Below are positions 39,331 through 60,483 of a stretch of 64,000 nucleotides of DNA, one piece after another. The translations under genes were made by a program, and so were the position numbers. Each line of letters starts with the position of its first letter. The stretch's first letter is position 1. The notes beneath the pieces are model-generated. The model was not told where the DNA came from. It ran no database searches and was given only the letters and a program-made list of their open reading frames with translations. Origin of the DNA: Candidatus Bathyarchaeota archaeon (GTDB taxonomy: Archaea > Thermoproteota > Bathyarchaeia > 40CM-2-53-6); the NCBI GenBank assembly GCA_963706285.1, contig CAVPLU010000006.1, positions 30,439-94,438 on the forward strand, in the 5' to 3' direction.

Positions 39331-39908
39331 CGATGGCCTAATGGTCTGACGTGTAGGACAGTTTTTGTGTGTGATTAGCGTGGTGCGGGTGTCGGAATTT
39401 GAACTTCGGTTTTGTGCGTCGGTACCTCGGAGCGGGGTGACCTGGGATTCAGATCTTCTTTGTTGTTTTCGTGTTGAGTAGAGGTTGCAGCTCGGGTTTC
39501 TTGTCATATAGTATGCGAGAATTGGGTTTCTCAGTTCGGCCGGCAGCGTATTCAGATAACTCCACACTATGCTTATCACACATTCAGAATCATTCGTAGA
39601 ACGGAATCTGCCGTCATTTAAGGGCCCGAGAATCAAATGGAATCAAATGAGATACGGCTGCTAACAGGCATCAAATCAAGTAGGATGAAATAACATCGAA
39701 TGAAATCAAGTCAGGAAGACCTTTACCGGCGCAAACGAATTTGCACGTGCACAGACATACCAAGGTGTCGGACAAAGTCGGATATTGCGACTCAGAATGA
39801 GCGTTTCTGGGTCGTTGCAGGGTCACTAGACGACAAATGGCAATAAACCCGCCCACCAAAACCGAACACAACAAGGACTATGCGAAAAGAGAATCGTATT
39901 CATAAAAG

Positions 39909-40061
39909 TGCGGGGGGTGGGATTCGAACCCACGAAGGCCTACGCCACAGGATCTCTTATCCCAAGGCGGATCTTAAGTGTGGCACGACTCGAAGGGTCG
40001 TCCTGCCCCTTTGACCTGAATCCCGCCCTTAATGCCGCGCACGGGTCTCGGGAACCCCCGC
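39909..40061 (-). tRNA. tRNA-Leu(UAA) with three BHB introns (15/16: 40046-40020; 30/31: 40001-39980; 37/38: 39972-39954)
   Basis: Spliced: GCGGGGGTTCCCGAG|TCAGGTCAAAGGGGCAGG|ACTTAAG|ATCCTGTGGCGTAGGCCTTCGTGGGTTCGAATCCCACCCCCCGCA; complete cloverleaf with a long variable arm. Confidence 0.92.
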
Positions 40062-40150
40062 TCGATACCTGCTAAGCCACGGTTTGGCTAAAAACTTGTG
40101 ATGCAGAATGCTTGCCTGTGAGAGTGGTTCACACAACACATGATCGAGCA

Positions 40151-44734: not shown

Positions 44735-45259
44735 CTATACTTTGAGGAAGTCAAGCGAATAGTAGACAATGTCAGTTCGTCTGTCAACTACTGCCAGAAT
44801 CAGGTCTTTCTTGTCCCTCGAAGCTCTCTTCAGCAGCTTTCGGAGGGTCTTAAGGTCCGCCTCTCCGCCCTCGTAGACAATGTAAACGTATCTCCGCATC
44901 GGTCCTTTTCCATGAATCTCAAAATCAAAAACTGGGGATTCTCTAACGATGTATCCTCGGTCCCGAAGGTCGCGGTATACTAGATATTTCACCCAGAGAG
45001 CGGGCTCTTTCGTAGCTGCCGACTTCACCAGTTTCTCAAAGGTAATGCTCTCTTTTTTCTTCCCTTCGACGGTGATTCTGCCTTTCTCAAGAAGATAGAA
45101 TGCCTCATGGGGTGTCAGAACGAGCTTCTTTCCTCGAAGCTCTCCGAAGCCACGCTCACGCATCTCCATTAGTTCCGATGCTCTCGGGAAAAAGACTTCG
45201 TTCGTTCCGAGGAATGCTTCGTAGACTTGGAATGGCTTCTCAGCCTCTGGCTCACTCAC
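44735..45259 (-). CDS. endA: tRNA splicing endonuclease, structural (non-catalytic, beta-type) subunit
   Basis: 'EAFYL', 'YLVYRDLRDRGY', 'LILAVVD....IVYY'; the catalytic 'KYG' Tyr and the His are absent. Confidence 0.82.
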   Translation of the reverse strand: MSEPEAEKPFQVYEAFLGTNEVFFPRASELMEMRERGFGELRGKKLVLTPHEAFYLLEKGRITVEGKKKESITFEKLVKSAATKEPALWVKYLVYRDLRDRGYIVRESPVFDFEIHGKGPMRRYVYIVYEGGEADLKTLRKLLKRASRDKKDLILAVVDRRTDIVYYSLDFLKV

Positions 45260-60330: not shown

Positions 60331-60483
60331 GGGCCCGTAGTCTAGGCCATCTTGTCATCTACAATTGATGATGTGATGGGGACAACCAGGATTAGGACAC
60401 AGTCGCACGCTTCGGTGTAGGCCTTCGGAACAAGCAGTGAGGAAAGCCTGGGATCCAGGGTTCGAATCCCTGCGGGCCCGCCA
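60331..60483 (+). tRNA. tRNA-Arg(UCG) with three BHB introns (15/16: 60346-60385; 29/30: 60403-60420; 37/38: 60429-60444); CCA encoded
   Basis: Spliced: GGGCCCGTAGTCTAG|CCAGGATTAGGACACAG|GCCTTCGG|AGCCTGGGATCCAGGGTTCGAATCCCTGCGGGCCCGCCA; TATA-like 'TTCTTATAG' about 30 nt upstream. Confidence 0.92.

Follow-up and report, generated by a model that had tools for sequence, protein, structure and literature searches.

A tRNA-Leu(UAA) gene with three introns and a seven-nucleotide anticodon exon in a Bathyarchaeia genome

The minus strand of the window (the whole 64,000-nucleotide stretch of DNA analysed here) carries, from position 40061 to position 39909, a tRNA-Leu(UAA) gene interrupted by three bulge-helix-bulge (BHB) introns. 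Two of these isolate an exon of only seven nucleotides, which includes the anticodon. We consider it very likely that the gene is functional and probably the only one for tRNA-Leu(UAA), that it gives rise to a precursor of at least 153 nt, and that the three introns are cut by EndA and the exons joined by RtcB. The geometry of the motifs, the cloverleaf of the product, conservation with covariation among relatives and the presence of the enzyme genes are shown here; that splicing takes place, and in what order, we infer. Genes of this kind are known. The present analysis adds the deep conservation of the micro-exon, a density of about two introns per gene and four-intron variants in sister lineages.

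Structure of the gene

Intron positions are given in canonical tRNA numbering (15/16, 30/31 and 37/38); counted sequentially, exon 2 is 18 nt long and not 15. An earlier sequence-only reading had drawn introns of 27, 22 and 19 nt at these positions, and all three are present with their helices and bulges, together with the 7-nt anticodon exon (39973..39979) that it described (Table 1). With cuts placed after the second base of every bulge, exons of 15, 18, 7 and 45 nt remain, which sum to 85 nt. The same reading had predicted that these would form a cloverleaf, and two programs agree. ARAGORN reads the spliced product as a regular class-II tRNA-Leu(taa), which upholds the proposed identity and strand, and the cloverleaf is also the MFE structure in RNAfold (-39.6 kcal/mol). 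The class-II tRNA-Leu features in the ARAGORN drawing are the long variable arm, the anticodon UAA, U8, A14, G18G19, U33 and the T-loop. The discriminator base is A, a Leu identity element. A box C/D guide function of the introns was dropped, since at 19-27 nt they are probably too short for it.

The three motifs differ in how closely they follow the strict hBHBh' form, which according to PMC7714728 requires a helix of 2 bp or more on each flank. Intron 2 fits this definition. Intron 3 has a single outer pair in place and gains its full anticodon stem only once intron 2 is removed, while intron 1, with no outer pair, corresponds to the relaxed HBh' form.

Sequence upstream and downstream of the gene offers a possible TATA box and a likely oligo-T terminator (Table 1). 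In farther loci TTTAAAG or CTTAAAG is found at a similar upstream distance to the TTTTTA of the window. The discriminator runs straight into the T run, so that the 3' CCA is not encoded and would have to be added post-transcriptionally. The same holds throughout the group formed by the window's gene and its closest relatives (L017-L022); in most other relatives (for example, L023-L024, L026, L028-L038 and L040) CCA is encoded right after the discriminator.

Table 1. Coordinates of the tRNA-Leu(UAA) gene parts and of related features in the window and elsewhere in the assembly. Positions are those of the window unless a contig is named. Motifs are given as central helix, bulges, and inner and outer flanking helices.
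Feature	Position	Strand	Length	Remarks
Possible archaeal TATA box, TTTTTA	40089..40094	-		28-33 nt upstream of the tRNA 5' end; read from the sequence
Exon 1	40047..40061	-	15 nt	Acceptor 5' strand, U8, D-stem 5' strand, A14 and G15; near-invariant among aligned orthologues
Intron 1	40020..40046	-	27 nt	At 15/16; relaxed BHB (HBh'); CCCG/CGGG 4/4, bulges AGA/ATT, inner 3 bp, outer none
Exon 2	40002..40019	-	18 nt	Remaining D loop, D-stem 3' strand, position 26, anticodon-stem 27-30
Intron 2	39980..40001	-	22 nt	At 30/31; full hBHBh'; GGCA/TGCC 4/4, bulges GGA/ACA, inner 4 bp, outer 3 bp
Exon 3	39973..39979	-	7 nt	ACTTAAG; position 31 and anticodon-loop 32-37, including the anticodon UAA
Intron 3	39954..39972	-	19 nt	At canonical 37/38; CTTA/TAAG 4/4, bulges AGA/AGA, inner 3 bp, outer 1 bp
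Exon 4	39909..39953	-	45 nt	Position 38, anticodon-stem 3' strand, 14-nt variable region, T arm, acceptor 3' strand, discriminator A
Likely archaeal oligo-T terminator, TTTT	39904..39907	-		Two bases past the discriminator; read from the sequence
EndA paralogue	44735..45259	-	174 aa	PF01974, 44.8 bits; closest solved relatives 5x89 (Methanopyrus fusion protein) and 1a79
tRNA-Arg(UCG)	60331-60480	+		Exons 15/17/8/36; introns 40/18/16 nt at about 15/16, 29/30 and 37/38
tRNA-Leu(UAG)	C9:95407-95584	-		Exons 15/18/7/45 nt; three introns, each exactly 31 nt long, at the three intron positions of the window's gene
tRNA-Leu(CAA)				Exons 24/9/7/45 nt
tRNA-Gly(UCC)				Exons 15/15/10/35 nt

Detection of the unspliced gene and search for its introns

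In its unspliced form the gene escapes standard tools. Its acceptor stem, T arm and variable arm are easily recognised in the sequence, but additional sequence interrupts the D arm and the anticodon arm. Over the full 64 kb of the window ARAGORN reports no tRNA, and Rfam gives no match for the gene at gathering thresholds. At a permissive E-value Rfam RF00005 matches exactly 39909-40061 with 26.3 bits (gathering score 29) and carries two insertions, one in the D loop (36 nt) and one in the anticodon loop (47 nt). A score below threshold is expected, because the gene contains 68 nt of insertions. We also tried all eight possible partially spliced forms with ARAGORN. The program handles intron 3 alone as a canonical intron and tolerates intron 2 alone, and it fails on all four forms that keep intron 1.

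A BHB-aware search, which the sequence-only reading had proposed as a check, was carried out with a solver that removes up to four introns and demands a cloverleaf. From 75 candidate BHBs in the stretch it returned a single solution, the three introns of 27, 22 and 19 nt as originally drawn. An unrestricted search of BHB cuts with ARAGORN and a permissive genome-wide run both gave many spurious solutions (up to thousands for pre-tRNAs longer than 200 nt); these were left out of the counts.

Conservation among relatives

When 40 relatives and the genome itself were searched at the DNA level, 18 genomes gave full-length matches (76-100% identity); they belong to the genus, to the family and to further families of the order. 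When 25 loci are aligned, four near-invariant exon blocks are separated by three blocks that vary in both length and sequence. All three introns are found in 22 of these loci. The other three (L036, L038 and L040) lack intron 1 only; their sequence is continuous across the predicted 15/16 junction and thereby fixes it to the base.

To extend the survey, one genome per GTDB species was searched with a pattern that ran from the end of exon 2 through intron 2, the 7-nt exon and intron 3 into the start of exon 4. This gave 89 stretches, all of which share the 7-nt exon by construction of the pattern. Most are labelled Candidatus Bathyarchaeia or Bathyarchaeota, with 12 Methanomethylicia (Methanomethylicus and Methanosuratincola), 6 Nitrososphaerota and 1 Hecatella; a few come from bins that bear a bacterial label, where they were probably placed in error. 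Among the named loci, the four closest to the window (85-90% identity along the complete pre-tRNA) all carry the label Bathyarchaeia, and on this ground we assign the window to that class. The strict solver solved 29 of the 89 named loci and left 60 unsolved, because intron 3 is often a weak BHB, and exon-anchored parsing was used in its place for the locus counts. By this procedure 67 of 114 loci have three introns (15/16, 30/31 and 37/38) and 28 have two (30/31 and 37/38), 18 are unmatched to the exon templates and in one exon 1 was not found. The two-intron group takes in all 12 Methanomethylicia and all 6 loci labelled Nitrososphaerota. To judge from these loci, the intron positions of tRNA-Leu(UAA) are kept across the class Bathyarchaeia and into Methanomethylicia.

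Exons and introns evolve differently. Exon 2 occurs in 12 sequence variants in 108 parsed loci, 54 of them identical to that of the window, and the exons are constant in place; intron lengths range over 14-47 nt (intron 1), 16-35 nt (intron 2) and 13-31 nt (intron 3). A complete 4/4 central helix is present in 44 of 51 distinct sequences of intron 1, 69 of 87 of intron 2 and 32 of 73 of intron 3, for which a further 40 have 3/4. The first three inner pairs were compared with a control in which 3' strands were exchanged between loci; since kin are not independent, the figures are descriptive only. They are kept in 72 of 87 sequences of intron 2 (83%, control 24%), 41 of 51 of intron 1 (80%, control 51%) and 33 of 73 of intron 3 (45%, control 32%). 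The inner helix of intron 2 thus shows clear covariation across loci. Intron 1 offers little variation that could covary, and for intron 3 the support is weak.

These comparisons bear on the alternative that survives best, namely a real tRNA-Leu(UAA) gene with other intron boundaries or another number of introns, for example a two-intron cut (52 + 22 nt). BHB-like helices of 4 bp often arise by chance (75-96 candidates per ~150-230 nt), and the permissive search gave for this cut, at the locus of the window (L017), an 80-nt product that ARAGORN calls Leu(taa). The cut would, however, remove conserved exon sequence and keep variable intron sequence, its 52-nt intron has no inner helix, and the stricter solver does not return it. 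More generally, the orthologues that lack intron 1 pin the 15/16 junction to the base and ARAGORN independently puts intron 3 at the canonical site. We regard other boundaries as very improbable and retain the three introns of Table 1.

A fourth intron in the variable arm of some relatives

The 14-nt variable region of the window's gene is common to 95 of the 112 loci in which the T arm could serve as an anchor. In 15 of the 112 it measures 28-42 nt instead of 14-15 nt. In 13 of these 15 the best-scoring BHB combines a 4/4 central helix with bulges AGA/AAG or AGA/AGG, and its removal (14-28 nt) leaves exactly the variable region of the window. No clean BHB motif was found in the long variable regions of the remaining two (L054 and L133).

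Eight loci (L064, L080, L099, L104, L108, L114, L121 and L130) combine introns 1-3 with a variable-arm intron of 14-16 nt and so have four introns. All are named Bathyarchaeia MAG contigs. Once spliced, 8/8 are read by ARAGORN as tRNA-Leu(taa) and 77-80 of the 85 positions match the product of the window. Seven further loci have a variable-arm insert and lack intron 1.

The tRNA set of the genome

The assembly is a MAG of 2.13 Mb in 21 contigs (51% G+C, 89% completeness and 7.5% contamination). Rfam gives only 16 tRNA matches in it, of which 13 span the whole model and are 88-129 nt long. With a strict solver and an ARAGORN check of each product, 23 distinct loci were obtained (in the shuffle control, 12 of 355 were solvable). 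Five have one intron, 12 have two and six have three, that is, 47 introns in 23 genes. A relaxed set of 29 loci has 58 introns, distributed as one (8 loci), two (13) or three (8), with none of four. No intron-free tRNA gene occurs among the 23 strict or 29 relaxed solved loci. Both inventories, which give ~2.0 introns per solved gene, are partial: ~46 genes are expected, about half of the set is unsolved, and introns in the T arm or acceptor stem would be missed.

Some intron positions are common to different tRNAs: six loci have an intron at index 15, five at index 23 and two at index 9. The 7-nt exon is found again in tRNA-Leu(UAG) and tRNA-Leu(CAA) of the genome, and tRNA-Arg(UCG) and tRNA-Gly(UCC) have micro-exons of a similar kind (Table 1); the anticodon micro-exon is thus a habit of this genome rather than a peculiarity of one gene. 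The second tRNA gene of the window, that for tRNA-Arg(UCG), is misread by ARAGORN when introns are allowed. It has a near-identical copy on contig C1 (14037-14186), which duplicates the locus on contig C6, and the tRNA-Met and tRNA-Thr loci on contig C20 duplicate loci on contig C4 with identical intron layouts. Such duplicates fit the 7.5% contamination of the bin or strain redundancy.

TTA codons are in use (36 in 26 window ORFs of at least 300 aa). Neither the solver runs nor ARAGORN or blastn-short revealed another Leu(UAA) gene, with or without introns, in the 2.13-Mb assembly; with blastn-short the 85-nt product matches only its own exon pieces and the 3' exons shared with other Leu tRNAs. 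The sequence-only reading had named a poor spliced product, or an uninterrupted Leu(UAA) gene together with a lack of spliced reads, as what would speak against it; the product is a clean cloverleaf and blastn-short detects no uninterrupted copy in this assembly. Since the assembly is a MAG of the completeness and contamination given above, the absence of a second copy is not proven.

Still less probable than other boundaries is a decayed tRNA pseudogene with accumulated insertions and incidental BHB-like pairings. Each of the three insertions is placed exactly in 3-nt bulges on either side of a 4-bp helix; the exons hardly change and the introns vary freely in 95 of 114 loci, which come from two classes and many families; and the inner helix of intron 2 covaries (83% versus 24%). 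In addition, no other gene was found to read the TTA codons and every other solved tRNA of the genome is built likewise. What a pseudogene would explain is that ARAGORN and Rfam make no call on the unspliced gene, that the public runs give no expression evidence and that the MFE of the whole stretch is barely better than that of shuffles (z = -1.93). Four such runs were searched: they contain no exon joints, and their RNA contigs cover only the conserved 3' exon common to many organisms. With a best coverage of 0.32 of sampled words, and 0.05 and 0.00 for the RNA runs, they are uninformative on expression or habitat.

The least probable reading, a chance cloverleaf from convenient cuts in GC-rich sequence, has in its favour that, given an acceptor stem and a T arm, 17 of 500 interior shuffles with these fixed were solvable (as were the 12 of 355 shuffles of other candidates), but none of the 500 reached the real score and the gene recurs among the 41 searched genomes (full-length in 18) and in 89 named stretches, so that we count it as already refuted by the comparative data. 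Taken together, the recurrence of the exon/intron layout in 95 of 114 related loci, the lone solver solution and the 0/500 shuffles exclude chance. A functional three-intron gene is the reading adopted in what follows.

Splicing machinery and order of intron removal

The genome has two PF01974 (EndA) paralogues, scoring 87.9 and 44.8 bits. The first lies on contig C12; its product can be aligned over the full length with the crenarchaeal catalytic alpha subunits 2cv8, 3p1z_B and 2zyz_B, and has Tyr, His and Lys in what we take to be the expected catalytic motifs. The second lies in the window (Table 1). Its positions aligned to the catalytic Tyr and His of its partner are changed, and it is probably a structural, beta-like subunit. 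The two paralogues presumably form an (alpha-beta)2 splicing endonuclease, the heteromeric type that reviews associate with relaxed BHB motifs as well as with introns that are noncanonical or multiple (PMC4090602, PMC4033280). RtcB is present in two adjacent frames (PF01139 at 326 and 261 bits). The two pieces (C4:105729-107043, minus strand) overlap by 23 bases and correspond to model positions 1-243 and 236-426, which could be due to a frameshift, an assembly error or a split gene.

In the proposed pathway, the gene would be transcribed as a precursor of at least 153 nt, EndA would cut inside both 3-nt bulges of each BHB motif and RtcB would join the exons. Introns 2 and 3 are probably removed stepwise: one would be cut out and its exons ligated before the other is processed, most likely intron 2 first and intron 3 second. 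Bases C32-U34 of exon 3 belong both to the outer helix of the intron-2 BHB (with positions 22-24) and to the central helix of the intron-3 BHB, so that these two motifs cannot both be complete at once. We infer ordered removal from this overlap at bases 32-34 of exon 3, from the canonical outer helix of intron 3 (the anticodon stem), which exists only after intron 2 has gone, and from the 7-nt exon itself, which if freed by simultaneous cuts would be held by almost nothing.

In the MFE fold computed after in silico removal of intron 2, the anticodon stem continues into a BHB-like helix that surrounds intron 3. For the full precursor, the MFE fold (-66.6 kcal/mol, z = -1.93) includes neither BHB1 nor BHB3. 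Forcing all three BHBs gives -58.4 kcal/mol, a cost of about 8, and forcing motifs 1 and 2, including the outer helix, gives -60.9 kcal/mol. The energies neither contradict nor prove ordered removal.

Significance

For annotation, the practical consequence is that ARAGORN and Rfam both miss the only Leu(UAA) gene found, and an automatically generated tRNA set of this genome would look incomplete. Bathyarchaeia are an abundant uncultured class of sediment and soil; their tRNA genes are as fragmented as those of Thermoproteales and of the Asgard families, and their intron positions are conserved deeply enough for the study of intron persistence. The 7-nt anticodon exon also provides a concrete test case for ordered splicing by EndA and RtcB.

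These observations can be joined into a broader reading, which we put forward tentatively and hold to be somewhat less probable than its opposite. The introns at 30/31 and 37/38 that isolate the 7-nt exon may form an old, vertically kept feature of tRNA-Leu in Bathyarchaeia and Methanomethylicia, and of three Leu isoacceptors in the present genome. The overlapping BHBs might then act as a conformational gate that forces stepwise splicing. Introns in the D loop, and then in the variable arm, would have been added in some Bathyarchaeia, and the class, with about two introns per gene and no tRNA free of them, could represent a second hotspot of fragmentation, so far unreported and comparable to the Asgard families. 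If this is true, it would imply long-term stability of intron positions and not rapid turnover.

Comparison with known systems

A literature search of limited coverage found no report on tRNA introns in Bathyarchaeota, Bathyarchaeia, Verstraetearchaeota or Methanosuratincola and no report of an archaeal tRNA with four introns (one apparent match counts the introns in a loop). The sequence-only reading had held that the gene extends three-intron tRNAs beyond Thermoproteales. This stands in so far as a Bathyarchaeia lineage is added; the claim is weaker than it was put, multi-intron genes of Thaumarchaeota and Asgard archaea having already been published.

Thermoproteales are described as the hotspot of multiple-intron tRNA genes, with three given as the archaeal maximum (PMC4033280 and PMC8450103, which cite Sugahara et al. 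2007, 2008 and Fujishima et al. 2010). Like them, the present genome has tRNA genes with as many as three BHB introns, which occupy both canonical and noncanonical sites and include relaxed motifs. Multiple introns there go with a heteromeric alpha2-beta2 EndA (PMC4090602), and two EndA paralogues are found here. The density of ~2.0 introns per solved gene, from a partial inventory, lies above the 1.54 given for Pyrobaculum calidifontis. Whereas rapid gain and intron transposition are described for Thermoproteales, here the same positions are kept for one tRNA across Bathyarchaeia into Methanomethylicia.

Multiple noncanonical tRNA introns are also recorded in Thaumarchaeota (tRNAscan-SE 2.0 paper, PMC8450103). 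The two cases have in common noncanonical BHB introns in a TACK lineage and the need for a covariance model of their own to find them. In the Thaumarchaeota account of that paper we found no example with three introns or a micro-exon, as in the gene of the window.

Asgard archaea are similar in degree. Interrupted genes make up 92-95% of the tRNA genes in three Asgard genomes (PMC11291895), and 2.0-2.4 intervening sequences per gene, up to five, are given for Asgard families (bioRxiv 10.64898/2026.10.13.758758, October 2026). In Atabeyarchaeia and Freyarchaeia nearly every tRNA gene is interrupted, more than half of them several times, at ~2.0-2.4 introns per gene, which resembles the solved set of the present genome. 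D-arm introns of Asgard archaea are often missed by annotators (PMC11291895, bioRxiv 10.64898/2026.10.13.758758), as is the case here. The phylum is a different one, and the preprint, whose main text has no mention of Bathyarchaeia, argues for many repeated gains, unlike the Leu(UAA) positions described here, which look stably inherited.

Outside the archaea, the red alga Cyanidioschyzon merolae has nuclear tRNA genes with three introns, for which RT-PCR has shown the order of removal, with 37/38 last (PMC3728597). Here too three BHB introns, including one in the D arm and one at 37/38, interrupt a single tRNA, and the order proposed above would parallel that of the alga. The algal genes are eukaryotic, the intron positions are otherwise different, and splicing was shown by RT-PCR, whereas the present case is known from genes alone.

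The tri-split tRNA of Caldivirga maquilingensis (Fujishima et al. 2009) is named in PMC4033280. In both organisms the anticodon region is a separate small module, but in the window all pieces lie in one 153-nt gene. In Caldivirga the anticodon module is reportedly joined via a BHB on both sides, and the pieces of the tRNA are said to be separate genes joined in trans.
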